DNA of 64,000 nt from Chamaesiphon sp. GTDB lineage: Bacteria; Cyanobacteriota; Cyanobacteriia; Cyanobacteriales; Chamaesiphonaceae. The position numbers and the translations under genes are program-made. The notes under the pieces are model-generated. The model saw only the letters and a list, made by a program, of their open reading frames with translations, ran no database searches and was not told where the DNA came from. This document shows positions 8,545 to 54,300 of this stretch, piece by piece. Position 1 is the stretch's first letter. Every line of letters starts with the position of its first letter. The stretch covers positions 197,726 to 261,725 of the forward strand of contig CBDFFH010000020.1 of the NCBI GenBank assembly GCA_965246715.1, written 5' to 3'.

Positions 8545-8668
8545 AGTTATTAAAAGCGATAGTTTTCAAGATTTAGACAACAACGAACCAAAGTTTAGAC
8601 CTGTGAGTTAGTTAGCGATAGCTTACAACCCACAGCTCGACAATCGATTATCGATCGCCAGTTGTCAA

Positions 8669-9253
8669 CTACTTTTTGCTGAGTAGAGCAAAATCTCGAA
8701 GATCGATGACGCGATTGCCACTGCTTTGATATATGGGCGTGCTAGTCGTTCCAGCGAATATGCTAGCGAGTTCTGCGATCGTCGTCCCAGCATCTTGATA
8801 GGATTTCAGCGTAAATAACATACTCGTGCGATCGCAAGGTTGTTCGGCATTAGATATCGCACAAATTATCCCCAAACCACTTTTTTTATCGATTCCCGCA
8901 GTCAGATAATGTCTCCCTTGTTGGATTGCAGCTTGAAATTTAGGCGACACTATTTCGCACCGTTGTTGGGGCGTGGTTTTAAAAGCTTCGCTTTTCCAGA
9001 TAATCAATACGGGTTCTTCTGTTGCGCCGCTAACCTTAGCCAGAGTAGCTGGCAGCTTGCTTTTACTACTAGGGTCTGTGGCTTTACCACAATAAAACTG
9101 AATTGTCGGCACGTTCTGAGCGATTTGTTGAGGGTTAGCTGTGGCGGGGATGACAGTCAGCAGCGATCCGATGGTGATGGCAAAGGTAGATATCCAGCAT
9201 GTGCGGATGGTATGTGAGTTAGATGAGGACGGCGTTTGGCGATGTAATTGCAT
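8669..9253 (-). CDS. COP23-domain secreted protein
   Basis: FYCG...IIW...TPQQRCEIVSPKFQ...ICA...MLFTL. Confidence 0.82.
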   Translation of the reverse strand: MQLHRQTPSSSNSHTIRTCWISTFAITIGSLLTVIPATANPQQIAQNVPTIQFYCGKATDPSSKSKLPATLAKVSGATEEPVLIIWKSEAFKTTPQQRCEIVSPKFQAAIQQGRHYLTAGIDKKSGLGIICAISNAEQPCDRTSMLFTLKSYQDAGTTIAELASIFAGTTSTPIYQSSGNRVIDLRDFALLSKK

Positions 9254-9457
9254 GATAATTAGTGAAGTTAATGGCTTGTAAGCATGGGATGAGATCGATC
9301 GGTTTGCTATCTCTATTCATCTAGATCGGGCACACCCTGTGAAATATGCAGTACCACCGATCGCTCTTTACAAAAGTTATTTAGTAGCGATCGTCGGCAC
9401 GGGCAAACTGTTATCCTGACGTGCCTCGCTCGTCAATTGGCAGACTAAACCAATTCT

Positions 9458-9979
9458 CTAAGAACGAGGATTCGCCAATGAATCGATTAATTCCTTGATG
9501 TCGATCGATTCGCTAGAGCTAGATTGATAAACAGGATTTCCAGTCCGCCGAATACTGTCATACAATCTACGCACGACTTCCTGAGCATCCTGCTGATTGT
9601 TGAGTACAAATAACATCCGTTTAGCATCGCACTGATTTTCGCCAGATTTAACCGCACAAATTAAGCCCTGTCCGGTTTGACGATCGATACCAGGGATCAG
9701 AAAAGCGAGATCGGTTCGATCGACAAATGCCGCCTGAAATCGACGAGAAATTGTCTCACATCTTTGTTGTGGCGACATCTTCCCAAATTTATTCCTCCAC
9801 ACCACGATCGTGCGCGGCTCAGATCCTCTCACTGCTAGCATTGTCGCAGGGTAGATATCATTAGTGCGCCCACAATAAAATTCCACCTTCTTTGGTGACT
9901 GGGCGAGGGTAGGGGCTGTTTGCAAGCTGGCGAAAAGCAAAGCAATCGAAGTGGCGATAACTGAGGCTTGAGGATTCAT
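9458..9979 (-). CDS. COP23-domain secreted protein
   Basis: FYCG...VVW...SPQQRCETISRRFQ...ICA...MLFVL. Confidence 0.82.
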   Translation of the reverse strand: MNPQASVIATSIALLFASLQTAPTLAQSPKKVEFYCGRTNDIYPATMLAVRGSEPRTIVVWRNKFGKMSPQQRCETISRRFQAAFVDRTDLAFLIPGIDRQTGQGLICAVKSGENQCDAKRMLFVLNNQQDAQEVVRRLYDSIRRTGNPVYQSSSSESIDIKELIDSLANPRS

Positions 9980-10054
9980 TGTGCCGATTGAGATGGTAAT
10001 GAAAAGTTGCTAGATCGATCGTTATAGATTAAACATTGGGTGGATTTGCTTGAA

Positions 10055-13467: not shown

Positions 13468-16425
13468 CTACCTTTTCTCAATTTTCTCCAAAAACCCCAT
13501 TGCTTTTTGATATAAATCTATCTGTCCTTGCTGACGAAATAACTCAGCCGCTTTGCTCGTATCTGCAATTGCACCTTGTTTATTTCCTATAGCATATTTA
13601 GCAAGACCCCGATTACCGTAAGCGTAAGCAAATTTAAGATTGAGAGCGATCGCTCGATCGTAATCGGTAATAGCCTCATGAGTATTTCCTAGAGCAAATT
13701 TAGCATCACCCCGATTAAGGTAAGCCCCAGCAAATTTAGGATTGATATTTATGGCTCGATCGAAATCGAGAATTGCTCCCTGATTATTTCCAAGCTCGAA
13801 TTTAGCCTTACCCCGATTACTATAGGCTTCAGTATCTTTATAATTTATAGCTATAGCTCGGTCAAAGTCGATAATTGCTCCCTGTTTATCGTCGAGCTTA
13901 TATTTAGCATTACCCCGATTAAAGTAAGCATCAGCAAATTTAGGATTGATATTTATAGCTAGATCGAAATCGAGAATTGCTCCCTGATTATTTCCAAGCT
14001 CGAATTTAGCCTTACCCCGATTACTATAGGCTTCAGGGTATTTAGGATTGATATTTATAGCTAGATCGAAATCAATAATTGCTCCCTGATTATTTCCAAG
14101 CTCGGATTTAGCAGCCCCCCGATTACTATAGGCTTCAGTGTATTTAGGATTGAGATAAATCGCCCGATCGTAATCAATAATTGCTTCCTGTTTATCTCCG
14201 AGCTTATATTTAGCATTACCCCGCTTACAGTAAGCATCAGCAAACTTAGGATTAATATCTATAGCTCGGTCAAAATCAATAATTGCTTCCTGTTTATTTC
14301 CGAGATCGGATTTAGCATTACCCCGATTAAAGTAAGCTCCAGCAAATTTAGGATTGATATTTATGGCTCGGTCAAAATCAAGAATCGCTCCCTGATTATT
14401 TCCAAGATCTAATTTAGCAGCCCCCCGATTGTTGTAAGCGAAGGCTTCTGGCTGTTTATTAATAACTGCACTATAGATAGCGATTGCCTCTGAATGCTGC
14501 TTCTGAGTGCCTAAGAGCCGTGCTTTTTCATTGAGCAAACTCAGGTCATTAGAACCTACTCTAATCGCTACATCGATCGCTTTGAGAGCTTCATCATATT
14601 TCTCTAAAGCTATTAAAATCAGACTTCTGTATTTCCAAAAATAGTAATATTTGCTATTTTGCTCGGGTGGGATTGCTATAATAGCTTGAGATATCGCACT
14701 TTCTGCTAGTTGATATTTATTAATGTTTCGCAATGATAAAGCTTTTCCATAATTACCTTGTAATTTTTGATTTCTATCGATAGCTCTATCAAAAGCTGAT
14801 GCAGCTTTATCAAATTGACCAGTTCTATAAAGTTGACTTGCATAAGCTAGCCAGCGTTCCCCATTATCTTTTATTTGAGGTTGAAAAATATTTTGCATTT
14901 CCGCAATTACGTTGTCTCGATCTTTTGGACTCAATTCGACTGGATTAGTTTTAACAAATTTTAAAAATTTAGAATTGATTCGTAATTTATCCAATAATCC
15001 CGTAAAGGTTTGGATCGATATCCCCAGACTATTGAGATCTGTTGATTCTGCTCTACCATGAATACCGATGACATTTCCTGCCGTATCGAAGACAGGCCCC
15101 CCACTCATGCCGCCATAACTAATGCTGCTATAGATGAGATCGTATCCGTTAGAAAATGATTGGTTAGTTTGAGTTTGCAATTTACCTTGTTCTCGATCGC
15201 TAATAATTCCTGGATTGAGTTGCCATTGCCACAAAGGGCTATTAATTTTTTCTCGTCCCGGAAATCCACCGACAAATACAAAATCGAAATTATTCTGGCT
15301 ATACTCGCCCAATTGCGCCACTGGATATTTATTACCACTCTCAAACTTCACTACTGCCAGATCTACCCCTTCAGCAACGATGCTACTAGTCACACTGCGC
15401 CGATCTTGGTCGTAGGTGATAATCTGATGATTGGTATATTTTTGGTTAGTTTCGGGATTTTGCAGCACATGTTTGGCAGTTAGGACGTAGTAACTATTCC
15501 CCTCCTTTGCCACAATTACCCCCGAACCATTCCCGCCACTATTCTCAATCCGCACTGTCATCTGCCGCGCTTTGATATTTAGTCTTGCCAGATACCCCGT
15601 TGGCGTGACTTGTCGCTCCACCTTGGGCAGATTAGCGTAACCATAGAGGATATCTGCCTTCACATTCGTCAGGAAATTGTAGACAGGTATCCCCCAATTA
15701 GCACGGGCGTATTGAGCCTTGAGCTTGGCTAGCGGTTTACTCCCATCGTTGTAGGTATAATCGGGCAAAATTGGTGCCACCCCGACGGTATTAATCCCTA
15801 ATAAATTCCCCTGAGCATCAAAGATCGCCCCCCCACTCATCCCCTGACGGATGCCTTGTTTCCCTTTGTCAGTAACATAACCAATCTGCGTCCCATCATC
15901 GAAGGGAATATCCGACAGTTGGGATACTTGTCCACTGGTAATCCTAATCTCCTTGGAGTCAAACGGAAACCCCGCACTATAAATTGTCCGCTCTATCGTA
16001 AGCGGACTCCCACTAATATTAGATAAATTAGCGAGGGTGTATTTAGTTTTACTGGTAAATTGCAATAGGGCGAGATCGTATTTCGAGTCAAAGCCACCGT
16101 CGATGGGTGTGGCTTGATACTTTTGCCCATCGGGAGCCTGAATTTCGATTTTAGTAGCGCGTCTAACGACATGGGCATTAGTCAGAATTAGGTAATTATT
16201 CCCCTTCTGGGCAATAATTACTCCCGAACCGCCATTATTGGTAGTGCTGACGCGCACGGTAATATTTTTGGCAGTTTGTTGGACTTGTTGAGGCGTGAGG
16301 GTTGCGTCTGTCAGATCGGCTTGGGCGATGCGAGTGGTGGGTTGTGAGGTACTACTTACAGCAGAGATGTTTGCTGGGATGTAGATAGTGGTTAGCAACA
16401 GAGCGGTGAAGAGCGTTTTGTTCAT
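13468..16425 (-). CDS. Secreted tandem trypsin-like serine protease with TPRs (paralogue 3)
   Basis: ORF 13468-16491; the likely start is ATG 16425 (MNKTLFTALL signal peptide); two protease triads and about 9 regular TPRs. Confidence 0.92.
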   Translation of the reverse strand: MNKTLFTALLLTTIYIPANISAVSSTSQPTTRIAQADLTDATLTPQQVQQTAKNITVRVSTTNNGGSGVIIAQKGNNYLILTNAHVVRRATKIEIQAPDGQKYQATPIDGGFDSKYDLALLQFTSKTKYTLANLSNISGSPLTIERTIYSAGFPFDSKEIRITSGQVSQLSDIPFDDGTQIGYVTDKGKQGIRQGMSGGAIFDAQGNLLGINTVGVAPILPDYTYNDGSKPLAKLKAQYARANWGIPVYNFLTNVKADILYGYANLPKVERQVTPTGYLARLNIKARQMTVRIENSGGNGSGVIVAKEGNSYYVLTAKHVLQNPETNQKYTNHQIITYDQDRRSVTSSIVAEGVDLAVVKFESGNKYPVAQLGEYSQNNFDFVFVGGFPGREKINSPLWQWQLNPGIISDREQGKLQTQTNQSFSNGYDLIYSSISYGGMSGGPVFDTAGNVIGIHGRAESTDLNSLGISIQTFTGLLDKLRINSKFLKFVKTNPVELSPKDRDNVIAEMQNIFQPQIKDNGERWLAYASQLYRTGQFDKAASAFDRAIDRNQKLQGNYGKALSLRNINKYQLAESAISQAIIAIPPEQNSKYYYFWKYRSLILIALEKYDEALKAIDVAIRVGSNDLSLLNEKARLLGTQKQHSEAIAIYSAVINKQPEAFAYNNRGAAKLDLGNNQGAILDFDRAININPKFAGAYFNRGNAKSDLGNKQEAIIDFDRAIDINPKFADAYCKRGNAKYKLGDKQEAIIDYDRAIYLNPKYTEAYSNRGAAKSELGNNQGAIIDFDLAININPKYPEAYSNRGKAKFELGNNQGAILDFDLAININPKFADAYFNRGNAKYKLDDKQGAIIDFDRAIAINYKDTEAYSNRGKAKFELGNNQGAILDFDRAININPKFAGAYLNRGDAKFALGNTHEAITDYDRAIALNLKFAYAYGNRGLAKYAIGNKQGAIADTSKAAELFRQQGQIDLYQKAMGFLEKIEKR

Positions 16426-16581
16426 AGAGTTAGCTTCGGGGCGGTAAAATTTGCGTTGTGTGAGTAGTCGATCGAGTTTAGTTGCTGACAATTCTCGATC
16501 GGGTAACTCGATCGATAATATGCAGGTTTTAGAAAAGAAATTTTGGTGGGAATTCGAGCATCATCGATTCAAGGATCGTCC

Positions 16582-21200: not shown

Positions 21201-21237
21201 GTTACAACCCTCATCAGCCTAAAATAACTGATGTCAC
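21201..21237 (-). CRISPR. Solitary degenerate CRISPR repeat just downstream of cas7
   Basis: Minus strand reads GTGACATCAGTTATTTTAGGCTGATGAGGGTTGTAAC, 37 nt, with the hairpin and 3' handle of the array repeat. Confidence 0.85.
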
Positions 21238-21253
21238 TATGATTTACTCTTAT

Positions 21254-22114
21254 TTAAGCTAACTTATTAATAATTGGTGGATATTGAGTTTGCAGTCCTG
21301 CGATCGCATCACTCAGTCGAGTTAAGATTACACCTTCGGGAGCAGTACTTAAATCGATGCTATGAGTCTGTGTGTGCTCATCAACATTAACACTGACTAA
21401 ATTAGAGATCTTATTCAATTGAGCATTACCGTAAGGAGTACTATGTGTCGCCACGACACATTCAATCAAATCCCATTCACCCCGCTGTAAACTGGCTGTT
21501 TGCATTGCATGGTGCCATAGACAAATTAGCCATTGCCCCATATATTCAGCATCGATAATATTATTACGTTGCTTGTTAATGCAAGCATTAAATGTTCCTG
21601 TACCCTTGGTAACTACCCAATCAATATAAGAAGCATTACCCATCGTGCGATTCCCTTTGGAGTTAGTTGTTGCACTGGTGACGGCTTGTTCGATCGGCGA
21701 AGGGATATTGATTGAAACAGATGGATAGAGTCGATAAATTCCGCGAAAGCCTGTATCAATTACTTCTTTTTTATCTTTGCCAAAACTGGCGAATAATCCA
21801 CCATTGCCACGCCTATCCCAATAATCTCCCATCAGATCGGCTGGAGTCTTTTTATCTTTGATATATTTCTGCTGGATATCATCTAAATTATTGCCACTAT
21901 GATATAAATTACTGACACCATATAATAGTTCCGCCGTTTGGTTAATGCGGTTACTCATACTCGTTGGGGTAGCATAAATATGGCTATTGGGAAGCTGACG
22001 TGGTGCATTTCCAGCATTGGGATCGCCATTTGGATTACAGATGCGTCCTTCCATAATCATCACGTAGTCATGGCGGACAGAGGGATTGGTAACAATCGTC
22101 GTTGGATTAGACAT
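21254..22114 (-). CDS. cas7: Cas7 (Csd2-like), type I-C
   Basis: N-terminal DYVMIMEGRICNPNGDPNAGNAPRQ matches the Cas7c NPNGDP motif; YWDRR.NG; HSTPYGNA. Confidence 0.88.
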   Translation of the reverse strand: MSNPTTIVTNPSVRHDYVMIMEGRICNPNGDPNAGNAPRQLPNSHIYATPTSMSNRINQTAELLYGVSNLYHSGNNLDDIQQKYIKDKKTPADLMGDYWDRRGNGGLFASFGKDKKEVIDTGFRGIYRLYPSVSINIPSPIEQAVTSATTNSKGNRTMGNASYIDWVVTKGTGTFNACINKQRNNIIDAEYMGQWLICLWHHAMQTASLQRGEWDLIECVVATHSTPYGNAQLNKISNLVSVNVDEHTQTHSIDLSTAPEGVILTRLSDAIAGLQTQYPPIINKLA

Positions 22115-22168: not shown

Positions 22169-23854
22169 TTATTCGGATGTTTTTCCGACAGTAGCAGTGC
22201 GCCTTGCTTCCTGAAATTGGCTGATTCCCAGAGCTAAGAAAAAGGCTTGTTCGTCAGTCCAGCGTTTAGGTGGAGAAGCATTGGGGCAATCTTCTCCAAG
22301 TTCAGAGAAAGTTTTGTCGTACCAAACAGCTTTATCCGGTCTTGCGGCTAAGTAGGGAATAACTTTGGTGATGATTTGGGCAAAGCCCTGTGCTGGAGAA
22401 CTGAAGAGAGTTTGACGATAAGAATCAAGGGGATCTTTCCACCCTTCTCCTGGTGCCGCACTACGGGCAGCATAATAATAAGACATGGTTTTGCAAGCAG
22501 CAAAAACTCGTCCGACATGCCATGCAAATAAATTATCTGGTGTTGTTTCTGGTTTCATCATTCGATCGCCTTCTATAAAATTAGGGGAAAGCCAAGCTAA
22601 ATAAGCAATTTGTGCCCATTCTCGGTTTGATTTTTTTGCGTTGGGGTTGGGAACACCCTCAATTTTGAGCCGATGAATAACACTGTTGGTAATTGCTTGG
22701 GGCGGCAAATGACCGTTAATCATGGCTTCAAAAATCTGTTCGTTAGCTTTGGTAACTGCTTGTTTGCTGCTACCTTCAGCCACTGTTAACGCACCAAACA
22801 CCCAATAAGGCTTGGAAATTGTCAGATAACGTCGCTGTTGCTGATGGTAAAAAAGCAGATTATTCAGGAGTTTTAGAATAGATAGATCGGTTATCTGTCC
22901 GATTGCAGCCCGTCCCTTACCACTACCACCAATCCCAATATAGCCACAAGCAATTTTTAGATCTTCTGGTATTTTTCCAATACTTTTGGCTCCAATATTG
23001 ACTAAATTGATAATGTCTTCCAATGCTTGAACGGGATCTAAATCGGCGGCTCCATCCGAACCAAAAAAAGCGGCAATCTCCTTACCTGCTTCACTAATTG
23101 CTGCCATCTCTGGCAATGCCCCCCAGACCCAATAAAGACCGCCTCCTAGCCAGATGTTATGACCTTTGGCTTCTAGTAACTCCGTATATCGCTGAGTTGC
23201 AATTACAGCTTTTTCCGCTGAGATGTTGAGCGCAATTTTTTCATGTTGTCCCCACGAACGAAACATATCATCGTTGCATCCTAGCAGCGGAGCCGCTAAT
23301 TTCTTCGAGTGGATTCTGGGTAAAGTTCCTAGCAAATTTCCATCACCATTACCGATCGCCCGTTCCAAAGTTTGAGCTGCATGAACAGATCGAATTGCGG
23401 GTAGATCGTGGATATAAGTCCCGTCTTCTAGTCGCCAGACAATACGCCCATTTTCGATCGCGGTAATATCTGCTTTCGGTTTTTCAGCGATTTGTCGCTC
23501 TAATTCTAGTGGACGATCTGACTGCATCCAATCGACGATCCATTGTAACTCTGGAACTTCTAGACAGCGTTGCTTCAAAGCTTCAACCATCGCCGCAAAA
23601 GCTTGGGGCTTGCGAGTCGGATGGTAATAATCTAATTTGTCCGACCCGACAATTGGTGCAATCCCCGAAGTGCGGGGCAGATCTGGCAACCAAAAGCGTT
23701 TACGGGTTTTGTTATCTGTTTCCAGTGGCATTAGATCTGCGGCGGAACCAATTTGTCCATTAGCTCCAAGTAGAATTTCAATGCCCACATCCATTGGCGT
23801 ATAGCCATAGGGACGATCGATTCCCGTCGGAGAGACAACTGAATTAATTTGCAT
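22169..23854 (-). CDS. cas8c: Cas8c (Csd1-like) large subunit
   Basis: Lies between cas5 and cas7; PRTSGIAP..DKLDY and C-terminal AWHVGRVFA...EQAFFLALG; probable start ATG 23854 with GGAG RBS, overlapping the cas5 stop. Confidence 0.8.
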   Translation of the reverse strand: MQINSVVSPTGIDRPYGYTPMDVGIEILLGANGQIGSAADLMPLETDNKTRKRFWLPDLPRTSGIAPIVGSDKLDYYHPTRKPQAFAAMVEALKQRCLEVPELQWIVDWMQSDRPLELERQIAEKPKADITAIENGRIVWRLEDGTYIHDLPAIRSVHAAQTLERAIGNGDGNLLGTLPRIHSKKLAAPLLGCNDDMFRSWGQHEKIALNISAEKAVIATQRYTELLEAKGHNIWLGGGLYWVWGALPEMAAISEAGKEIAAFFGSDGAADLDPVQALEDIINLVNIGAKSIGKIPEDLKIACGYIGIGGSGKGRAAIGQITDLSILKLLNNLLFYHQQQRRYLTISKPYWVFGALTVAEGSSKQAVTKANEQIFEAMINGHLPPQAITNSVIHRLKIEGVPNPNAKKSNREWAQIAYLAWLSPNFIEGDRMMKPETTPDNLFAWHVGRVFAACKTMSYYYAARSAAPGEGWKDPLDSYRQTLFSSPAQGFAQIITKVIPYLAARPDKAVWYDKTFSELGEDCPNASPPKRWTDEQAFFLALGISQFQEARRTATVGKTSE

Positions 23855-24521
23855 AGCCGCCTTCTCCACGTCGGGGATATGCCGGAACTGTGACCACTCC
23901 ATCAATTATCTTGGCTTCAAACATCACTGCTGCGCCCGTGACTCGTTCCATCGGTCGATCGGCGAGCATTGCTGTTGTTCGACGGGCAAATGTCTTCTTG
24001 ACAGGTTTAGAGGTGGGTTCCCAAGTCCAATAGTGAGGCATTCTCCCTAGACTCATTTGTTTTATATCGATCGGTGCTGGACTAACAGCATCCTTGGCTA
24101 GTAGCTCTACCGTGGCAGGGTAATCACTGATGCCCATGCTAGGTTGATAATAGTGTTGTCCGCTCAGGAGTCTTCGAGCTAGTTGACCGATTCGTTCCTT
24201 CGAGTCAACTTCGCTGTCACAGTCTAGCCAGAAATCCACTAAATATTTTGGTTCTACGAGTAGCTCATAAGTTCTTAGCCAGGGATCGCCCGTTTGGTGA
24301 TTGAGTTGGGTGACAGTCTCAGTTGTGTAGGAGATCGGATTTAATATAGAAATCGATTTGACCTGAACTGACTGACCTGGATGCCAATAAACTGCATTAA
24401 TTATTCCTTCCACTGCGGTGGGGGTAATAATCGGGTATGTACTCGGTTCGCCTGGATTACCAGGTCTTTGAAAGTGCCCAAGTGGAGCACTAATGATTAC
24501 TTTCAAACGACTCACTCCCAT
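23844..24521 (-). CDS. cas5: Cas5c (Cas5d), crRNA-processing Cascade subunit
   Basis: FQRP...STYPIITPTAVEGIINAVYWHP and YYQPSMG match type I-C Cas5 motifs. Confidence 0.9.
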   Translation of the reverse strand: MGVSRLKVIISAPLGHFQRPGNPGEPSTYPIITPTAVEGIINAVYWHPGQSVQVKSISILNPISYTTETVTQLNHQTGDPWLRTYELLVEPKYLVDFWLDCDSEVDSKERIGQLARRLLSGQHYYQPSMGISDYPATVELLAKDAVSPAPIDIKQMSLGRMPHYWTWEPTSKPVKKTFARRTTAMLADRPMERVTGAAVMFEAKIIDGVVTVPAYPRRGEGGYAN

Positions 24522-24543
24522 GCACTAATTTGACTTCTATCTA

Positions 24544-24572
24544 ATATTAGCGATATCATTTGAAAATAGCAA
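24544..24572 (-). promoter_or_regulatory. Putative sigma70 promoter of cas5-cas8c-cas7
   Basis: TTGCTA-N17-TAATAT on the minus strand, with the -10 ending about 22 nt before the cas5 ATG. Confidence 0.7.
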
Positions 24573-24573
24573 C

Positions 24574-24608
24574 AAAAAACATCACTCAGTTTAATGAATG
24601 ATGTTTTT
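24574..24608 (-). terminator. Intrinsic terminator closing the mini-array transcript
   Basis: AAAAACATCATTCA-TTAAAC-TGAGTGATGTTTTTT hairpin with U tract on the minus strand. Confidence 0.75.
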
Positions 24609-24717
24609 ATGCTCGCCAGTATTAGATATTTACAACCCTCATCAGCTTTTCAAGGCTGGTGTCATCTCTCAATTGTAGATCTTACAACCCTCATCAGCCC
24701 CGAAAAAATGGTGTCAC
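24609..24717 (-). ncRNA. crRNA-like mini-array (repeat, 15-nt spacer, repeat, 20-nt guide); CreR-like
   Basis: Degenerate 37-nt repeats at 24681-24717 and 24629-24665; the guide TATCTAATACTGGCGA matches 24538-24553 at 14/16 behind TTC; candidate promoter TTGAGA-N18-TAAGAT at 24735-24764. Confidence 0.85.
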
Positions 24718-24765
24718 TGTAGCTCGTCTATAACATCTTACCTACCATTCTCTTACGATCTCAAT

Positions 24766-26916
24766 ATGATTCTCACACCTCTAGCTCGTCCGAATCAACC
24801 ACTGTTGGCACACTTACTCGGAGTCGGTCATCATACTGGTCGATTATGCTCTTCCCAATCGGATTGGGCAAGGTTAATTGGATTGCTACACGATTATGGT
24901 AAATATCGCCCTGAATGGGTAGAGGGGATAAATGCAATTGCCAATGGGGAAAATCAGGACAAGCTTCCTGATCATGCTGTCGAAGGTGCGCTGTATCTAA
25001 TCGAGATGTTTCCAGATCGATCTCATTTTAAGGTGAGGGCGTTAGCATTATTAATTGCTGCTCACCACGGTGGTCTGGGGGATCTGAAGCCAAGCATGGA
25101 TTGGTTAGCAGGAAAGGATTCTGCTCGTCCGCTCCCAGATATGGATCGTTGTCAATGGAAGATTGATGATAAGTATTTAGTTGAAGTAAAAAAGACGATC
25201 GCTGTTGCTAAATATAGTGATTTAGATACTTGGATGCCTCCTAATGACTATCGTACCGCTCAACGACTGCGATTTTTGTATGGTGCGCTAATTGCTGCCG
25301 ATCGACAGGATGCAGCGATGAGTGATGGATGGAAACCTGCTACATATTGCTCGATGACAACACTGGCAGATAAATTGGCTACTTGGTATGAATCGAAATT
25401 TAGCCAGCCTGAAAATCCCTTGGATAGATTGCGGGGTGATTTTTATACTGAGTGCCGGAAGGCAGCAAAGCTTGAACCAGGCTGGTTATCAGTGCGTGGG
25501 CCATGTGGTATATCCAAGACTTGGAGCGTGATGCAAATGGCTCTCGATCGTGCAGCCCAATGGGATAAACAAAAGGTGATTTATTGTGTGCCTTGGACGG
25601 CAATTTTAGGGCAGTCTTACAACCAGTACCAGGAGGTATTAGGTGCTGATAATGTTCTCGGACACTGGAGTACGTTAGTCGATCCTAAAACTCAAGATCC
25701 TGAGCAACTTCGTAACTCTCGACAGTGGTGGGAAACTCCCGTTATCGCTACGACAATGGTGCAACTGTTTGATGTGTTACTAGGATCTAGAGCGCGGACG
25801 GCGCAACGGATGCCCAGTTTGCAAAATGCTGTGATTGTCTTGGATGAAGTGCAGGGATTACCGAATGAGCTACTCATTACTTGCATTAAAGTACTCGACC
25901 AGCTAGTTCAAGACCACGGAGTAACGATTATCCTGTCTACGGCAACTATGCCAGATTACGCACCTTTGGGCATTAACCCGATCGAAGCACTTCCTCAGAC
26001 TAAAGTTGATGAATATTTTGAGGGAACTAAACGGGTCGAATATCGATGGGCTGAGGAACCCCTAACATGGGAATCCATCGCCGCTGAAATCGTCCAATCT
26101 CAAAAAAGTAGCACCCTGATTGTGACAAATACTGTGGCTGCTTGTGATGATGTTTATACTGTTATGCAGTCTCTGCCAAATCATCGAGTCTATAAATATA
26201 CTGCAAGTATGTCTCCTGCCCATCGTGCTGTGGTCTTGGCAGAGATTAAGGCAGCGGTTAATGAAGCAAAAGAAGGCGGCAATCCTGTAATTATTTGTGC
26301 GACTAGCGCGATCGAAACGGGTGTAGATCTCGATTGTACTCAGGGCTATCGCGAACTATCAGGATTAGAATCGATCGTGCAGTTTGCCGGAAGAATCAAC
26401 CGGAATAAGAAGGATAGTGAGTGTCCTGTGACTATATTTAAAACTGTAAAACATTATCCAGTCCCACCTGGTAGCGATCGACGCACAACTCGCACTTTAC
26501 AGGCTATGGCAATGGGTACCGATCTACAGTCCCCCAATGTATTGGCATTTTACAGTCAGCTAATTTTCCAAGATGCGCTTTCATCACAGCAAAATCCCAA
26601 TGTTTATAATTACTTGGAGGGTCTTAAAAAGTTGGAATGGGAGACTGTCAGCCAAAAATGGCAAATGATTTCTCCGACAACTCCAGTATTAGTCGATCCT
26701 CGCTTATGGGATGCCTCTGTTAGTATTCTTGCTGAATATGATGAGGCCATGAGCGAGGCTAATTATCGCGTCTTACAGCGGCACTGTATTGGTATGTACA
26801 AGCGCAAGTACCAACAAGCTAAAGACGATCGATGTATTGTTGAGAGTCAAATCAAAGGTCTAGATGAATGGGTTGGTATTTATGACATGGGTGTAATCCT
26901 CAACGCGAACCCCTAG
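24766..26916 (+). CDS. cas3: Cas3 HD nuclease-helicase
   Basis: LLAHL, GLLHDYGK, AHHGGL, ADRQD; variant Walker A GPCGISKT, LDEVQ, SAT, ETGVDLD, QFAGRINR. Confidence 0.95.
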   Translation: MILTPLARPNQPLLAHLLGVGHHTGRLCSSQSDWARLIGLLHDYGKYRPEWVEGINAIANGENQDKLPDHAVEGALYLIEMFPDRSHFKVRALALLIAAHHGGLGDLKPSMDWLAGKDSARPLPDMDRCQWKIDDKYLVEVKKTIAVAKYSDLDTWMPPNDYRTAQRLRFLYGALIAADRQDAAMSDGWKPATYCSMTTLADKLATWYESKFSQPENPLDRLRGDFYTECRKAAKLEPGWLSVRGPCGISKTWSVMQMALDRAAQWDKQKVIYCVPWTAILGQSYNQYQEVLGADNVLGHWSTLVDPKTQDPEQLRNSRQWWETPVIATTMVQLFDVLLGSRARTAQRMPSLQNAVIVLDEVQGLPNELLITCIKVLDQLVQDHGVTIILSTATMPDYAPLGINPIEALPQTKVDEYFEGTKRVEYRWAEEPLTWESIAAEIVQSQKSSTLIVTNTVAACDDVYTVMQSLPNHRVYKYTASMSPAHRAVVLAEIKAAVNEAKEGGNPVIICATSAIETGVDLDCTQGYRELSGLESIVQFAGRINRNKKDSECPVTIFKTVKHYPVPPGSDRRTTRTLQAMAMGTDLQSPNVLAFYSQLIFQDALSSQQNPNVYNYLEGLKKLEWETVSQKWQMISPTTPVLVDPRLWDASVSILAEYDEAMSEANYRVLQRHCIGMYKRKYQQAKDDRCIVESQIKGLDEWVGIYDMGVILNANP

Positions 26917-27072: not shown

Positions 27073-30000
27073 GTGACACCAGTCCTTCGGGGCTGGTGAG
27101 GGTTGTAAGCTAGCGAAATTGTCCCACTTACTTACACCACTTCGTGACACCAGTCCTTCGGGGCTGGTGAGGGTTGTAAGTTGCCGGGTAGTCTCGCCGA
27201 AAAGCAGCAAGCCTACGAGGTGACACCAGTCCTTCGGGGCTGGTGAGGGTTGTAAGACATAAACCGTATAGCTAGCGGTAGCTGTGGCTGGAGCAGGTGA
27301 CACCAGTCCTTCGGGGCTGGTGAGGGTTGTAAGTAAATACTGGCAAAGATGATCCAAATTTAAAAGGGGTGACACCAGTCCTTCGGGGCTGGTGAGGGTT
27401 GTAAGATCGAAATTGCCAGCAAAACGGTAGTTCTTACCCCGTGACACCAGTCCTTCGGGGCTGGTGAGGGTTGTAAGTCGATCGTTATCATCTCCGATGA
27501 GAGGCAGAATAACCGCGTGACACCAGTCCTTCGGGGCTGGTGAGGGTTGTAAGGAGTGGGGAGCGGCGATTCTCGCCCTTAAGGCGTGACACCAGTCCTT
27601 CGGGGCTGGTGAGGGTTGTAAGACTCGATCGGGCAACAACAAGGCACTCAGTACTATGTGACACCAGTCCTTCGGGGCTGGTGAGGGTTGTAAGGGGTTT
27701 GTCTGTTTGCTCCGTTGCAGAGGGATAGATGTGACACCAGTCCTTCGGGGCTGGTGAGGGTTGTAAGAAGTAGTATTACTGCAAAACAACAATCATTTGG
27801 AGTGACACCAGTCCTTCGGGGCTGGTGAGGGTTGTAAGAAAGTCGATAATTTCGTATGGCTTGGTGCTGGGTGACACCAGTCCTTCGGGGCTGGTGAGGG
27901 TTGTAAGTCAACGATCGATTGCCGATCTCGATCCACTCCCGCGTGACACCAGTCCTTCGGGGCTGGTGAGGGTTGTAAGTAGGATCGGTGTAGCACTTGG
28001 CAGAGTCGGGGATAGTGACACCAGTCCTTCGGGGCTGGTGAGGGTTGTAAGGCCGATTGTTCTGAAACCCATCTTGACAGACTTTAGTGACACCAGTCCT
28101 TCGGGGCTGGTGAGGGTTGTAAGCTCGATACCACCGATCGAGCGGTCCGTCTCGATGTGACACCAGTCCTTCGGGGCTGGTGAGGGTTGTAAGTGAGTTA
28201 GATCGGATGGGCCGATCGATTGTAGTGACACCAGTCCTTCGGGGCTGGTGAGGGTTGTAAGAGACATGATTCGATCGGCATGATGACATCATATTCATGT
28301 GACACCAGTCCTTCGGGGCTGGTGAGGGTTGTAAGAATTTAATTAATCACTTAATATCATAACTCTCTGTGACACCAGTCCTTCGGGGCTGGTGAGGGTT
28401 GTAAGCAAATCATTGCTTACTGGTGCTAGTTGTGGCTGGCAGTGACACCAGTCCTTCGGGGCTGGTGAGGGTTGTAAGGGATGGCTAATCACACAACTGT
28501 CTATCACCATAAACCCACGTGACACCAGTCCTTCGGGGCTGGTGAGGGTTGTAAGAACGCGATCGCTCAACCAGGCGATGCAAGCGCGGTGACACCAGTC
28601 CTTCGGGGCTGGTGAGGGTTGTAAGACCATTTTGATAGTAAATCCGATCTGTTTCTATGTGACACCAGTCCTTCGGGGCTGGTGAGGGTTGTAAGCAATA
28701 CTTAAATTCTCCGTGCACCGAGAAATACAATGTGACACCAGTCCTTCGGGGCTGGTGAGGGTTGTAAGGAGCCAATAGACAATTGGAGCTAAGAGTTGTA
28801 GTTGAGTGTGACACCAGTCCTTCGGGGCTGGTGAGGGTTGTAAGTGTTGATAATCGCACCAGCTGGCAGGATTAACGCAGTATCAGGTGACACCAGTCCT
28901 TCGGGGCTGGTGAGGGTTGTAAGCTTAAACTAAGCGGAATCACTAAAAACGAAATGCTGTGACACCAGTCCTTCGGGGCTGGTGAGGGTTGTAAGTTTGA
29001 GTATTATAGGGAGACTAGAGCGGGCAAGAATTTTGTGACACCAGTCCTTCGGGGCTGGTGAGGGTTGTAAGTTTGGGCAAGTCTTCTACCGACCATTCAG
29101 ATGCGTGACACCAGTCCTTCGGGGCTGGTGAGGGTTGTAAGATGAGAATTCGCCCAGTCATCGCAAACTCGAAGTGACACCAGTCCTTCGGGGCTGGTGA
29201 GGGTTGTAAGTCAGGGACTTGCTCTTTTGAAATCGAGGATGGGGAGGTGACACCAGTCCTTCGGGGCTGGTGAGGGTTGTAAGAATTTGATTGCCCGCAG
29301 GATGACGATACAAATAGGTGACACCAGTCCTTCGGGGCTGGTGAGGGTTGTAAGTGCCAGCATGAGTGTTAACACCATTAACAGCCGTGACACCAGTCCT
29401 TCGGGGCTGGTGAGGGTTGTAAGTAGAACATTGAAATTGTTGAATATTATCTGTGTGACACCAGTCCTTCGGGGCTGGTGAGGGTTGTAAGGCAAATGCC
29501 GTATCGCAGCGATCGAGATGCTCCGTGACACCAGTCCTTCGGGGCTGGTGAGGGTTGTAAGCGTCCATATCGAGTATAGTCACTGACTCAAATGTGACAC
29601 CAGTCCTTCGGGGCTGGTGAGGGTTGTAAGTGGAAGCTATGTAAAAATTCTCGATCGCTACCCAGGTGACACCAGTCCTTCGGGGCTGGTGAGGGTTGTA
29701 AGAAAACAATGACATTAGTAAACAAAATTGAATCGATTGTGACACCAGTCCTTCGGGGCTGGTGAGGGTTGTAAGAGCCCGAAACGGCTAGCCACAGCTC
29801 AAAACTCATTGTGACACCAGTCCTTCGGGGCTGGTGAGGGTTGTAAGACGACAGCAAGTCAAACACTGATTTTACCGACGGTGACACCAGTCCTTCGGGG
29901 CTGGTGAGGGTTGTAAGCAATTGTGTCCGTGTCCGGGGTCTGATACGCTGTGATGTGACACCAGTCCTTCGGGGCTGGTGAGGGTTTGTAAGGGGAATAA

Positions 30001-31005
30001 TAATCGTCGCGCCGCCCAAACCGCAGGTGACACCAGTCCTTCGGGGCTGGTGAGGGTTGTAAGTCCTGAACGGTCGTCCTACAACAGTAAAAACCTTATC
30101 GACGGTGACACCAGTCCTTCGGGGCTGGTGAGGGTTGTAAGCAAAAAGGCTCGGAAAATGCCAATGATAGCTCACGGTGACACCAGTCCTTCGGGGCTGG
30201 TGAGGGTTGTAAGATGGCGTGCCGATCGAGATGGACGATACCTATGTGTGACACCAGTCCTTCGGGGCTGGTGAGGGTTGTAAGAAAACTTACTGGAGCG
30301 GACTTACTCGCTCGCATGTGACACCAGTCCTTCGGGGCTGGTGAGGGTTGTAAGCTAGCGATACCTCAGTATTGCTGTTGACCTGAATTGCCATTATGTG
30401 ACACCAGTCCTTCGGGGCTGGTGAGGGTTGTAAGGATCGTTAAGGTATCGGTACCCCTGTCCCAGTAAATGTGACACCAGTCCTTCGGGGCTGGTGAGGG
30501 TTGTAAGCCTGGAAAGTTAACGATCGCCCCGCGCAAGACGTGACACCAGTCCTTCGGGGCTGGTGAGGGTTGTAAGTGTTGTTATACCCTAGATTTCGCA
30601 ATTCTTTAGGTGACACCAGTCCTTCGGGGCTGGTGAGGGTTGTAAGAGTCGATCGGGTGTCATCGCAAAACCATATTGATAATATGACATCAGCCTTTCA
30701 GGGCTGGTGAGGGTTGTAAGGAGTATGGTACGCCAATCGTCCTCAACATCTACACGGTGACATCAGCCTTTCGGGGCTGGTGAGGGTTGTAAGAAGTCGA
30801 TCCATTAAGGTGTGGCGAATTGTGCAGCTTTTTTTTGGGCTGCTGAGGATGGTAGTTCTGTGGGACAACGTTGTCCCACAGAACTACTGGGTGACATCAG
30901 CTTTTCTTTGGGGCTAGTGAGAGCTATGAGAACGGCAAACTAATTCTTACTCTGCGGGGCAATACCGATGACATCGGCTCCGAAAGGCTGATTAGTGCTG
31001 TAAAT
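27073..31005 (+). CRISPR. CRISPR array, about 55 repeats and 54 spacers
   Basis: 37-nt repeat GTGACACCAGTCCTTCGGGGCTGGTGAGGGTTGTAAG occurs 50 times (the copy at 29955 has an extra T), then 5 increasingly degenerate trailer repeats from 30684; spacers about 28-43 nt. Confidence 0.99.
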
Positions 31006-31040
31006 AAGTGGAGTAACGATCGAGAGTTAAGCGCATTTTT

Positions 31041-31077
31041 ATTACAAACATCACCAGTCTCAAAAGATTAGTGATGT
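31041..31077 (-). repeat. Inverted degenerate CRISPR repeat behind the array trailer
   Basis: ATTACAAACATCACCAGTCTCAAAAGATTAGTGATGT is about 25/37 identical to the reverse-complemented repeat and keeps a hairpin. Confidence 0.55.
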
Positions 31078-31183
31078 TTAAATCCCTGGCACTGCTATTA
31101 ATGTCACCGATAGGTAGTAGTTAGGCCAAATTGCACTGATAATTTGTAAAATCAGTTGTTAAAATTGGAGTAAATGAATAAGC

Positions 31184-31709: not shown

Positions 31710-34700
31710 TTATATTGCTATCTCTATTTCCCACTCCTGTTCATGATTCTCTGTTTGTATTGGGACAAATGCTGGGATAGATTGCTCTGTTTGCTCTTGA
31801 GCTGGACTTGCCTCGTATATACCCGCAGAGTTGAGGTACAAGTCATAGCCCGCTTCCACAAGATAATCTCTGGTCATTTTATCGATGCCCGTGTCAGCAC
31901 CGACTAAAAACTTCGCTTTAGCCTTTGTTGCAATATCGATCTGTGGTGCATACTGAGTACGAAAATGCTGTGCCAGTAACTCGTTGCTAGTATCCCTCCC
32001 CGTCCGATTCCCGCTGACCATTACTACATCTGTCGATTTGTAGGCGGTTACATTAGCATTAGTACCCCAGTTGTCGCGGTACATAGATGTGCGACTTCTA
32101 GCTTCGAGTGGAATCCCAATATATTTGTTAGCCGCAAATCCCATCATGATATCAGTCTGAGCGCGAGACTGTAGCTTAGTCCAGTCCTTGTTTGCGCTGT
32201 AAGAGTTGAGGATTGGGTTACTCCGCTTAATCCCATCCCGCACCAAAACGTGACTGACAGCACGATCGTTGAGATAAGTTTGTAATACGGCAGATTCCAC
32301 CACCGCAAAGTATCGGGTTGATTTGCCATCCTCGCTGGGTAGCTCGGCACCGATTGGTAAGCCCAGGTGATAAACTGCTGTGTCTCTTTGTCTCGAATTG
32401 ACAAATTCAAACACGACCGACGATCCAATCTCGACTCCTTTACCCTTGAATCTAGTTAAAACCTCTCCAGCGATCGGTTTTAGACTGTAAGAGACAGGTC
32501 TAGATCTGTTCAGATCTAACATTGGGGTATCTGTGGCTTGCGGGTATCGTTCGATCCATTTCTTGAGAATATTAAGTTCGATCGGACACCGATAGCGAGT
32601 AATGGGGATGCTGGCAAGTTTAGCTTGGTAATCTGCTTGAGTGACTGGCTTCCCTAGTTGTTTAGAAATCATGCTTTTAACCGAACTTTCCAACCCTGCT
32701 GGATCGAGCCGCAATACCGTATACGAACGACGAGATTCCTCATAGCTGGCGGGGATACCACGTTCCATTTTTGTATAATTGACATCCTTCTCTGTGAGCC
32801 TTTTTTCGACCGCAACAATCTTGTTTTCTGGTATGACTAACAGTAGCTGCTCAACTTCTTTCAATCCTGACTCATCAACAATGGGCACCATAACCTTAAC
32901 TGAAAAAGATTGCGGAAAGGAATTACGATCGGCTTGACGACGCAAGTTGCGACTTGTCTCTTCCAAAACAACCTTGACTCGATCGCGAAGCGCGCTACCA
33001 AGGCGGTCGCTCTTAAATTCGACTGATTTCAATTCCCTGACTGTCAATTTTGGGCTTTGTACCTCATCTTTTGTAGCGCGCTGATAAGTCCTGGCAGGTT
33101 CGACATCGGCCCAGATATTGCTGTTGTAAAGAGTATTCTCATCAATCGATATTTTATATCCAACTTGTTTGGGGATGACACTCTGCACTTTAATCGAGAT
33201 TTCATCGGTATCTGCAAGCTCGGTAATCCGATTGCCCCAAAATTTTTGCTCGGCAGTTTGCGTAATCTCCCCAATCCTTGTCTCACCGCTGTAGACCTCG
33301 ATCGTTGAATTTGGCTCAAGATCTCTGACTAAATCGACTGATATTGCTTCAAACCGTTCCGTGCGGACGGGTTCGGTAACAGTATCGCGATTTTTTTTCT
33401 CGTAAATGGGACTAGAATTTACTCCTGACAGATAGTAAGTTACACCAGCAATCGCTACGGTTGCAGAGAACTTGTTATCAAAAATCTTGAGTCGTTCGAG
33501 CGTCAGCTCCGCCGATTGCCCGTCACCCAAAACCGCTGTAATTTCTGGAGCGATGTCAATAACTTTAATATCGATCTGCTCTGATGGCACTACTAAACGA
33601 TAATTTGGTGTCTGGGTGCAGATGACTCGGATCTCCCTCACATCGCCACTGTCGATTAAATGCTTGCCCTCCCCAGTCAGTTTGCCCACCAACACCGATC
33701 GTTGGTTTCCCTCTAACATCGGCGATTTAAACGTGACGGTGTTGTAGTTAGGCTCGATCGTGCCCTGGAAGCTAGTCTTATCTAGCAGTTGAATGCCATA
33801 GCCAGTCAACTGACCAGCTTCGATCCACTGCTGTTTACCATCAACTTCTGCCTGTGCTTTAAGTTGTTTCGTACCATCGCTACCTGCCATCACAAAGTAC
33901 TTGGTGGGTTTGGTGAGGTAATCTGGATATTGGGTATCCATAATAATCTGCCCCGCTCCCCGATCGAAGATAAATTCATTCAGTGTCTGGGGTAAAGCAC
34001 TCAACAAGAAGTCTTGAGAGATTGCTTTCTCTCCTACCATTTGAGCGGTGGCAGCAAATACCTCACGCTTGTCCCAGCCTCGCTGCTCGATTTGGGCGCG
34101 GAAATCTGCCAAGACTTCGCGGGATTCGGCTTTGAGTTCGTCAATGCGGTTGTGGAGGACTTCAAATTCAAAATCGCTCACATGCTGTTTGCCCTCAGTA
34201 ATAGCCGAAGTTTTCGCACTCGATCCCAGCGTGTACTGATAGTCGATCCCCAATGAGGTTGACGAATTAGCGGGATAAAAAGTCACCAAGCCATTGCTAG
34301 ATTCGATCGCTCCCTTGCCTTCAAGTTGGCGAAAAGTATTAATCTCGCTGACATTACAGTCGCCGACGACAATTTTACTGCCATTAGTAGTGTAGATATT
34401 GAGGACGATCGGTTTGCCAAATTTCAAATCATCTAAGGCTTTTTTCTCAAGTGCGATCGTCGATTGAAGATTTTGGTAGTCGTCACGGAAATTGGCGACC
34501 ATCGCCTTCATTTCTGGCTCGACTGGAACAGATCGCAATTGACTGATTAGTGCGTTCAAGGTCATGCTACTGCTCGGTGGTAGCCGATTCTGGTGGTTCT
34601 CCTCAACGATGAATCGTTTGAGTAATTGGATCCCAGCATCGAGTTCGGGTAGCTTGTTGGTAACGGCATAGACTGTTCCCTCGCTGGGTTTCACCCCAGA

Positions 34701-37080
34701 TTTGACAAAATCTACCGCTCGTTGATTTTCTCTATCTACGACTTCAATACATTTGCGGAGTACGACGGTTTGGTAATCGCGTAAGTAAGTGTCGATCTGG
34801 GCGGGATCGTAGGGATAGTTGGGAGTAACATCGATCTTTTCGGTAAAAATCAGGGGTAGATTAGTGTCGGGATCGATCGTTGGTTGGTTACTCGTCAATG
34901 GTTGAGAGAGATCGATAATCTTACTTAACCGTTCGCGCACGCTCGCGTAGTTCTCAAGATAATTCACCAGTAAAGCTGGATCTGCCTTACCCTCACGGAT
35001 CGCCATCAGCTTCATGGACTTGACTTTCTCCATATCCTCAATCAGATCTGAAGGAAAAACAATCCCCTTCTTCGCATTGATGGGTTTAGCTGCAAGAGTC
35101 TCCGCGTGATACGCACCTAGTAACTGCGCGATTGGCTTTCTCACTAGATGAAGATAGTTAGCTTGAGTGTGGGGATTGTCCGTCTGCTCTTTGATGAAAT
35201 CGACGCTAAACAAAGGTGTGAACTGCTCGAACGTGGCTTGAAGTTCTGGCGGAACTTCAAGTTGTAAATTAACATCTGGCTCGACCACAGATTTTGCATC
35301 CGCTCGATACTTGTGAAAAGAGCTGTAAATTAGTTGCAGTGTCTCGGTTTTGAGCTTTTCGGCAGATCGGCGATCTGCTGCTGATAACTCTCCATCCGTG
35401 CTGGCGATGATAAAATCCAAACTTGCATAGAGTTTATTGATTTTACTCAGTTCGCTATTGATAATCCCTACATAATCTTTCAACCGTTCGACCACCATCC
35501 CAGGTAAATCTTCACTTTGAATTAGCTGCTTCTTGTCCTTCGAGACGAAGTGCATCAACTTTTCTGGGGTGAGGTTATCGACGACTTCCTGATAGAAATT
35601 GGGATAATCTCGTTCGGCAAATAGGGCGATCTGATCCCCATCGAAATCTGCCTTCATCGCCTCCAAATTTGTCCGCCAAGATGCTCGTGCTGCTGCGATC
35701 GAGCCAAACTCTTCAATAATCTGTTGATAGGTTTGGGGGTCATCCTGCTCGATTTCTGCCAGTGTCTGGCGACCGACATAGATCGCATCGGGGATGACTC
35801 CTTCTAGTTCGGGATTGAGAAATAGGGAGATGTTGTTATTGACTTCTACCGCTTGGACTTGTCCGCGATTGAGAACGGGAAACCGCAGCGCGACATGCTT
35901 GTCGCCAGTAGTTAAGCCCGCTCCAGCAATCTGATTGTGCTTGAGTTCGCCACAAACGACAATCGGGCGAAACTCACCTCGCATTGATGAGATCGCTCCT
36001 TCATTAATATTCTTAATTTGTCCGTCCACGTATTCCTGGAGGTTAGCGCGGACGCTAGGTAATTCGAGCAGTCCCCAATTCTTGGATTCTAAGATCGTAT
36101 CGATGAATGCGATATTTCCTGGTAGTTCGACTTCGGGTTTGCCCTTTTTTACTTCCTCCTGTTGGGATATTTTGAAGGTGCGGACGTAATCTTCCGCCAG
36201 ACTGATGAGATCCATCTGCTTTTGTTGGCAAATCTTGAATCGCTGTCTGAACGGGGATGCTCACATCTTTTGCCAATCCCAGAGCGTATAAGTCCTGCAC
36301 GGAACCGAGTTTGGCGGTAGTTTGACGGAATCGCTCGGTTCTGATGATAAATAGATCCGCAGGCTCGACTTGATGAATGCCAATTTTAGGGGGAAGCTTA
36401 CCACCACCTAAACCTTTGAGCATCGATGTGGTTAAGACTAAATCCACATCTACATCCACCCCATGAGTGGCAAAGTATTTCTGGAGATTGAGGGGAGTAA
36501 CTGTACCTTTGATATAGTAGGAGCCGATTTGGGGATCGAGGCTGTATCCGCGCACTTGGGATAAGCCGACATCCTCAATTAATTTCATCCGTTCGCCGAC
36601 GGATCGATCGATTATGCTCGCACCGTCGGCGGCAATATTGCGGATCGCTATTTCTGGGATACCGTAGTTATTCTGACCCGTTTCATGGTCTACTACCAAT
36701 ACCTTCAACTGACGATCTAGGGACTGGCTTTGTCCTTTTGCAAATAAACCCCTGGCGTAACCTGGAATCTGAGTTTCTAGGGGCATTAACGTCTTAATTG
36801 CCGCCTTGACTTCAGGAGTACCAAAATAGAGTTGAGCCGAGCTTGTAGCTAGTAAGACGGTGCCTTCAGGGGCATGGTTGGTGAGGTCATCAACGTTGAT
36901 ATATTTGGAGTAGGGAGCAACGTAAAATGTTGGCTGTTCGCCCTCTTTTAGTAATCCTTGCCGTCGCATTAATTGTTCTATGGTAGTACCTTCCCTAATC
37001 TCCGATCTAATCGCGCCAGAACTTACAGAGATTTGAGGTCTTCTATTGATGAGATCGTAATTGATTAATTTAATAGACAT
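31710..37080 (-). CDS. Two-barrel (YonO/RdRP-like) single-chain RNA polymerase with C-terminal SLOG-like domain; split by a 1-nt frameshift near 36227
   Basis: ORF 36055-37080 has DGASII, QVR, IKG and LTTSMLK; ORF 31710-36215 has RFPVL and ADFDGD (35634-35651); removing one base joins IQDL to QQKQMDL, giving about 1790 aa. Confidence 0.8.
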
Positions 37081-54170: not shown

Positions 54171-54300
54171 GGGACGTAAATTAACTTAACATTCCTTTGT
54201 ACTATTCTATAGTACTGGTGCCCATAAGTGGGCAGATAGCAACAAAAAGCTATGTCTGACTGTGGTTTGGCGGGTAGTACGGGCGATTCAAGATTTGAAT

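Follow-up and report, generated by a model that had tools for sequence, protein, structure and literature searches.

The DNA analysed here (the window) is a 64,000-nt stretch of a Chamaesiphon sp. contig, numbered from its first letter. It carries a type I-C CRISPR-Cas locus in which the Cascade genes cas5c, cas8c and cas7 run leftward on the minus strand and cas3 diverges from them on the plus strand (Table 1). The best matches of the three Cascade genes are I-C models, with scores above the Pfam and under the NCBIfam cut-offs; the system is therefore a divergent I-C one. Of the 11 solved-structure matches of Cas5, ten are either named as Cas5 or crRNA-processing proteins or are uncharacterised entries similar in length, and the named structures closest to the Cas5 alignment are Cas5c-type (Cas5/DVULG-type). 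For Cas8c, the solved-structure search gave no meaningful match. The cas5c gene likely starts not at the ATG at 24521 but at the TTG at 24506, the position at which 18 of 21 aligned homologues begin. No match to Cas6 was found in the ORFs scanned on both sides of the cas genes, and the sole cas1 match of the genome is located on a different contig. In cas8c, an in-frame ATG pair (codons 449-450) lies 3' of a purine-rich stretch and is a candidate internal start of a Cas11c of 129-130 aa. Cas3 has its HD and DEVQ motifs. Its Walker A region (residues about 244-251) ends in GISKT, with Ser just before the Lys, as it also does in the related locus L032; the usual form has Gly at this place.

The main array holds 47 spacers of 31-43 nt between exact repeat copies and is oriented along the plus strand, since the degenerate copies lie at its right end. 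Its repeat has the I-C pattern, a 9-bp hairpin with 11 unpaired bases behind it, and would leave an 11-nt 5' handle, the place of the cut being taken from work on Neisseria I-C. The tail of the array (30800-31080, plus strand) contains several very degenerate repeats and, near 30855-30890, an inverted repeat that looks perfect. The window and G278, the three-contig genome that carries L032, have the oldest spacers in common.

Table 1. Coordinates of the features of the locus within the window.
Feature	Position	Strand	Remarks
Solitary repeat psiR3	21201..21237	-	8 mismatches to array repeat; hairpin -9.0 kcal/mol, handle kept
cas7 (type I-C, divergent)	21254..22114	-	PF05107 E 1.4e-20; TIGR02589 under cut-off
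cas8c	22169..23905	-	PF09709 E 6.7e-24; TIGR01863 under cut-off
cas5c	23844..24506	-	PF09704
Predicted cas3-directed sigma-70 promoter	24530..24559	+	-35 24530-24535, 18-nt spacer, -10 24554-24559
TTC PAM	24535..24537	+	directly 5' of target
Guide target (protospacer)	24538..24553	+	14/16 matched; mismatches at 10 and 12
Predicted cas5-cas8-cas7 promoter	24544..24572	-	-35 24572-24567, 17-nt spacer, -10 24549-24544
Intrinsic-terminator-like hairpin	24575..24608	-	14 pairs; z = -4.86
20-nt guide (spacer-like)	24609..24628	-	begins at first base after psiR2
Degenerate repeat psiR2	24629..24665	-	10 mismatches to 37-nt array repeat; weakened hairpin
psiR2 11-nt 5' handle	24639-24629	-	no mismatch in first 10 bases
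15-nt piece between psiR1 and psiR2	24666..24680	-	holds TACAAT (24677-24672)
Degenerate repeat psiR1	24681..24717	-	4 mismatches to 37-nt array repeat; handle intact, hairpin lost
cas3 (HD nuclease + helicase)	24766..26916	+	TIGR01596 above cut-off; TIGR01587 just under
Main CRISPR array	27073..30793	+	37-nt repeat, 49 exact copies; right-end copies degenerate

Related loci were collected with an alignment of 22 Cas5 sequences, which gave three loci in metagenomes and five in species genomes (two of the five too distant); the locus of G278 was added and duplicate loci were counted once. The titled close relatives are Chamaesiphon and Alkalinema MAGs, and this speaks for a cyanobacterial host. 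The whole region 5' of cas5 is available for six close loci (L032, L034, L035, L037, L038 and L039), and a further one, L036, ends inside the terminator. Wider searches recovered little else: viral contigs held neither a relative of Cas5 nor an exact match to the repeat motif, all 27 Cas5 matches in a plasmid collection were under 60% and none was close, the handle motif occurred at control level in 401 genomes of the phylum outside the own genome, and a sequence-only model of the unit run on 23 sources recovered only the training loci, L036 and array repeats. An Rfam search gave no match.

The 260-nt intergenic region between cas5c and cas3 contains a guide unit and its target. An earlier note on this DNA had described, on the minus strand, a repeat, 15 nt, a second repeat, a 20-nt guide and an intrinsic terminator, and each of these elements is in its place. 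The note had taken them for a mini-array with a 15-nt spacer; the parts are present, but the two-spacer reading does not stand. As a two-repeat mini-array the unit was rejected: the guide is followed by a terminator and not by a repeat, psiR1 has lost its hairpin (-0.9 kcal/mol), and a search of five relatives for the whole psiR1 found it in none. As a second guide the 15-nt piece was rejected as well, its best TTC-flanked matches in the genome lying in unrelated places with 2-3 mismatches besides positions 6 and 12. Instead, this piece probably holds the -10 box (TACAAT) of the promoter of the guide RNA: a -10-like hexamer with 5/6 matches stands 4-6 nt 5' of the guide's repeat in five of the six loci with a guide (the window and five relatives), L037 being the one without. 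Since the 15-nt piece holds this conserved box, the unit is read as a solitary-repeat unit and not as a two-spacer array; as judged from its sequence, the working unit is probably one repeat, guide and terminator, with the RNA starting at psiR2. Scans of L032, L035 and L037 gave nothing equivalent to the candidate promoter that the earlier note had placed 5' of psiR1 (24764-24735, 9/12). By eye, remnants of the first bases of psiR1 are seen near cas3 in L032 and L037. A 6,148-nt contig of run X1, possibly the source sample, contains psiR1 unchanged. The search for sequencing runs that contain this DNA gave none recorded as RNA.

The first 10 of the 11 handle bases are identical in all six loci. 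The psiR2 hairpin keeps seven of nine canonical pairs (-5.1 kcal/mol). A different fold, better by 2.6 kcal/mol, would bury part of the handle; it is the main doubt on processing of the RNA in the Chamaesiphon sp. strain. Among the relatives, L034 and L035 have the full repeat hairpin (9/9) with altered base pairs, L038 has it in a shifted register, and L037 lacks it (3/9 pairs). In 5/5 loci the terminator core folds less stably on the strand opposite to the guide; in the window, five T still follow the core on the opposite strand.

The guide starts exactly at the end of the repeat and matches a site directly behind TTC, with the mismatches at positions 10 and 12, all as the earlier note had claimed. 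This target is 75 bp away from the guide and lies 32 nt 5' of the likely cas5 start codon. In the 6.1-Mb genome, six sites besides the guide itself match within two mismatches, and the one at 24538-24553 is the only one preceded by TTC. When the 127 nt between guide and cas5 were dinucleotide-shuffled, none of 3000 shuffles gave an equal TTC-flanked match, and the match is thus beyond chance. A blind search for pairs (TTC-flanked, at least 13/16 matched, first five bases identical) in 310 nt of the window returned exactly one guide-target pair, which starts right after the handle. TTC is the I-C PAM of D. vulgaris, and Cas5c is the enzyme that processes I-C crRNA, according to the available part of one report (10.1101/2022.06.15.496202). 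In the present clade TTC is the putative PAM: it precedes 6/6 regulatory targets, of two independent origins, and the array spacers gave no protospacer. The 47 spacers of the window had no match elsewhere in their own genome, nothing was found for the array in plasmid and phage records, and comparison with 39 genomes of the family gave, beyond other arrays, only short chance-level matches. Likewise, 79 spacers from five arrays yielded no protospacer in the own genome and the related loci.

A repeat, a guide, a hairpin and a TTC-flanked target are found together in five of the six close loci (L032, L034, L035, L037 and L038). The sixth, L039 (2203-2359), is a Chamaesiphon locus with divergent cas3 and cas5 and a Cas3 74% identical to that of the window; neither the repeat nor a guide-target pair was found in its 155-nt gap, which makes it a natural guide-less comparator. 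Three loci of the more distant sister clade (L033, L086 and L088; Cas5 about 36% identical where measured) have no repeat in the 620-640 nt 5' of cas5, and the blind search returned no qualifying pair in these three loci or in L039. All six pairs, counting that of the window, have TTC and are matched at 13 of 14 pairing positions, when positions 6 and 12 are set aside. Shuffles that reached the observed score numbered 0, 1, 0, 0, 0 and 0 in 3000 for each of the six pairs. The mismatches fall at position 12 in 6/6 pairs, at position 6 in 3/6, and at positions 19 and 20 in 6/6. Positions 6 and 12, where mismatches concentrate, are unpaired in Cascade, as the earlier note had said of position 12.

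Guide and target also change together, at position 2 (A/A versus G/G) and at position 4 (C/C versus T/T). The five Chamaesiphon-type pairs are not independent tests, as they share ancestry and the guides of L034 and L035 are identical. The guide of L038 (Alkalinema, Cas5 62% identical) is unrelated to those of the other loci, cross-matches reaching only 5-9/16. Its target has TTC, lies 40 nt 5' of cas5 on the same strand as the guide and is mismatched at positions 6, 12 and 16; here too the blind search returned exactly one pair, right after the 11-nt handle. Covariation of guide and promoter in homologous loci, which the earlier note had named as a check, was thus found as one independent pair and no more than two matched changes, and the pairs have only two independent origins.

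These pairs bear on the null of the earlier note, in which the match would be a mere inverted repeat around the terminator. Under this explanation guide and target would be the outer arms of a long inverted repeat that forms RNA structure in read-through transcripts, and reverse complements do flank the hairpin in the window and four relatives. The L038 pair, however, is a direct repeat and unable to form such a hairpin, and an RNA stem would need neither TTC, nor alignment of the guide with the end of the repeat, nor tolerance of mismatches at positions 6 and 12. We consider a structural role of this kind very improbable, and the unrelated guide of L038, whose TTC site is on the other strand, rules out a mere inverted repeat. 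Conservation of the target alone could reflect constraint on a promoter and as such counts against autorepression.

The unit might also be a relic or at most a Cascade sponge, with a guide RNA that is unprocessed or unloaded and has no regulatory effect in this strain. The weak psiR2 hairpin with its preferred alternative fold, the resemblance of psiR1 and psiR3 to decaying repeats and the lack of the unit in L039 would fit this view. Against it, the handle, the PAM and 13/14 pairing positions are intact while positions 17-20 drifted, and the -10-like box and the terminator are kept. A relic is therefore an improbable reading.

Two predicted promoters overlap at the target. The cas5-directed one matches the consensus at 8/12 positions, which is under the threshold of the scan, and it is absent from the six sites that the scan listed. 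Its -10 box (24549-24544) falls inside the target, at positions 7-12, and its 17-nt spacing is kept in 5/5 tabulated loci, and by eye also in L036, with a varying spacer sequence. The claim that the target covers the -10 box of the cas5 promoter is thus backed by the place of the box and by the conserved spacing, but concerns a promoter that is predicted at only 8/12. The promoter picture of the earlier note was right in placing the predicted cas5-side -10 in the target but left unmentioned a better-scoring promoter directed at cas3. This cas3-directed site is the best of the region (10/12) and was also found by the scan in L032 and L035 (10/12), and not in L037. Its spacer is exactly filled by the PAM and the 16 matched bases. 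TA...T is present as its -10 at the same spacing in 6/6 close loci, with varying middle bases, and the -35 in 5/6. The transcript would run antisense through the guide unit to cas3, 200 nt away.

As the target fills the spacer of the overlapping cas3-directed promoter, cas3 is probably also repressed, and one Cascade may repress both directions; repression of cas3 is less certain than that of the cas5 operon. In L037 the cas3-directed -35 has decayed (3/6), and a strong hairpin separates the promoter from cas3, which counts against a role in cas3 expression. This palindromic hairpin (L037 7775-7812, between cas3 and the guide unit) is taken for a dispersed repeat because eight similar copies occur in its own genome, and it may insulate cas3. 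A nearer promoter of cas3 could sit in the AT-rich DNA adjoining the gene.

L032 differs from the window by an ORF between guide and cas3 (8497-10767, minus strand; called with 756 aa, of which about 706 follow the likely start), which has the direction of cas3 and lies downstream of the targeted cas3-directed promoter. It has no Pfam match and two weak PADLOC matches, and NERD is a minority annotation in look-alike clusters; the ORF is a candidate for CRISPR-supervised defence cargo. In the window, no ORF of at least 90 aa was found as cargo between cas5 and cas3, and the CreTA/CRISIS class, with a toxin or defence cargo under the targeted promoter, was rejected for it on this ground. No CreT-like gene was seen in the 200 nt 5' of cas3; an RNA toxin between cas5 and cas3 is possible in the window.

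Conceivably the main object of the guide is the promoter that points to cas3, with whatever cargo follows it, after the manner of CRISPR-supervised defence systems, and the cas5 operon is hardly affected. The better consensus of this site (10/12 in the window, L032 and L035), the spacer that the protospacer exactly fills and the called 756-aa ORF of L032, with its weak NERD-like signal and its cas3-ward direction, would agree with such a role. In L038, however, cas3 does not adjoin cas5 and the target still lies 40 nt 5' of the cas5 start, and L037 kept guide and target despite its decayed -35 (3/6) and the intervening hairpin. We therefore judge a mainly cas3-directed role unlikely. More tentatively than autorepression of the cas5 operon, we put forward that Cascade on two fully overlapping back-to-back promoters might repress cas5-cas8-cas7 together with cas3, that the antisense loop might form a switch, and that the G278 cargo might be co-governed; as a whole this combination is rather doubtful. 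If it were true, the cas3-directed transcript would run antisense through the guide gene, so that a loss of Cascade would also cut guide synthesis and turn a rheostat into a switch, and in G278 the same promoter would govern a NERD-like nuclease gene, that is, a cyanobacterial CRISPR-supervised defence cargo. A real overlapping cas3-directed promoter would place nuclease and surveillance complex under the joint control of a single 16-bp site, and this promoter is the part most worth an experiment.

Taken together, the data make it likely that a short crRNA-like RNA parks the type I-C Cascade on the predicted cas5c promoter and represses its own operon without cutting DNA. CreR-like RNA-guided autorepression, which the earlier note had proposed, remains the best reading in view of the conserved TTC, the clustering of mismatches at positions 6 and 12, the covariation and the independent Alkalinema pair. 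The guide RNA would start a few bases after TACAAT, at the first base of psiR2, and Cas5c would cut it at the base of the repeat hairpin to give the 11-nt handle. The mature RNA would measure 46-51 nt if it ended in the terminator loop and about 66 nt if the hairpin were kept. Loaded with it, Cascade would cover the -10 box with an R-loop of 16 bp, the PAM falling on the predicted cas5 start site. Pairing would end at 16, against the 31-43 nt of true spacers, and would presumably be too short to license Cas3. That 16 bp do not license Cas3 accords with general knowledge of type I systems and with a statement on limited pairing for the Neisseria I-C crlRNAs; our literature search found no study of the R-loop length that Cas3 activation needs in I-C. 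The unit would form a negative feedback loop, since Cascade would be titrated away by an anti-CRISPR or by the crRNAs of the long array, which would relieve the block. The two unrelated pairs, on opposite strands and with the same 13/14 pairing, amount to a natural experiment, and their convergence suggests selection for a tuned affinity, that is, for binding without cutting.

The anatomy of the guide unit matches that of the tested Neisseria type I-C crlRNAs and of the CreR class. In the part of the Neisseria report available to us, single-repeat I-C crlRNAs have an 11-nt handle, measure 48-50 nt, end in a 3' hairpin loop, use TTC with pairing of about 16 bp and mismatches at 6/12, and repress promoters 4.8- to 60-fold (10.1101/2024.12.27.630466). 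As in the I-C crlRNAs that the accessible text of Shu et al. describes for Nezha, Gabija and CRISIS loci, a single degenerate repeat stands directly 5' of cas5c, with the 11-nt handle, short guide, 3' hairpin, TTC and pairing of about 16 bp; their 48-50 nt compare with the 46-51 nt predicted here by the same rule. In the same portion of that work, which deals mainly with Neisseria, the target precedes inserted defence genes, 37-46 bp 5' of the start site. In contrast, the window has no cargo, its cas3 is divergent, and its target lies over the predicted cas5 -10 and start site; the host is a cyanobacterium, and Cas5, Cas7 and Cas8 fall under the NCBIfam I-C cut-offs.

Toxin-free creR was named by Liu et al., who, in the portion consulted, tested it for I-B, I-E and V-A, predicted it for I-C, and reported relief of the block by crRNA load or an anti-CRISPR for other subtypes (10.1101/2023.03.10.532045). 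The present unit resembles CreR, as described there, in its degenerate repeat-derived guide, its limited pairing, its PAM-flanked site at a predicted effector promoter and the lack of a toxin beside it. Of the traits that mark CreR and the I-C crlRNAs, a degenerate repeat outside the array with the handle bases kept is found in psiR2, and PAM-proximal pairing of about 9-16 nt from the repeat end in 6/6 pairs. In the S. enterica CreR, by the description at hand, the guide stands between two repeats and is directed at a site about 140 bp 5' of casA, whereas the window has a terminator in place of the second repeat and a target about 30 nt before the start codon. For the predicted overlapping promoter pair the closest precedent, by analogy, would be CreA of Haloarcula hispanica, which in the accessible text of Liu et al. 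represses two divergent promoters from one target between them (10.1101/2023.03.10.532045); that system is type I-B, with archaeal promoters, and its second promoter drives the RNA toxin CreT, as opposed to cas3 in the window.

Regulatory mini-arrays and single repeat units were reported by Shmakov et al. with targets in I-E, I-F1, I-D and I-B; 'I-C' does not occur in the main text, and the supplements may list I-C loci (10.1101/2023.03.03.530964). A preprint on phage crlRNAs, in the part available, uses the Neisseria I-C CreA/R as known queries (10.1101/2024.10.29.618823). Our literature search, which left most subscription papers outside, found no cyanobacterial I-C case and no joint repression of cas3 and Cascade; supplements of the preprints may list this clade. 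Judged by sequence, this small cyanobacterial I-C clade has a conserved guide of the CreR type, which belongs to a class already known. Guide-directed autoregulation of Cascade is thereby extended to a clade that is small, cyanobacterial and divergent within I-C, and whose replicon is probably conjugative; with the mechanism class already published and tested, specialists will find it confirming and not surprising.

The earlier note had called the system plasmid-borne. VirD4- and VirB4-like genes lie within the window. Rightward of the array, 20 kb align to the second contig (446 kb) of G278 at 88-92%, and to the left of the window a part of the contig likewise aligns beside the G278 locus. 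The 262-kb contig has no tRNA, but tRNAs are also absent from 29 of the 55 contigs of the genome. A conjugative megaplasmid is thus likely as far as gene content and contig matches indicate, but the genome is a draft, and the glutaminase region left of cas7 matches the largest contig of G278 (91%), which counts against a plasmid. An integrated element is possible instead.

Further features were noted in this neighbourhood. An IetA-like AAA ATPase, a VWA protein and a SoFic-like Fic protein (53096-57424, minus strand) adjoin the conjugation genes as a possible defence cluster, and a group II intron reverse transcriptase/maturase (60175-61986, plus strand) adjoins a VirB4-like gene. A 1501-aa ORF (31710-36215, minus strand) gave no family in NCBIfam, Pfam or PADLOC and has about 92% DNA identity in G278. 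Three similar long ORFs with 102-nt repeat units lie on the minus strand (274-2703, 5159-7870 and 13468-16491), and the one that was scanned is a protease and TPR-repeat protein.

The solitary repeat psiR3 lies 16 nt 3' of the cas7 stop, and no good TTC-flanked target was found for the sequence after it. Since L032 has a repeat and L038 an array at the same place, psiR3 is probably, from its position, a relic of an array formerly at the cas7 end. It may let Cas5c trim the 3' end of the cas operon mRNA.
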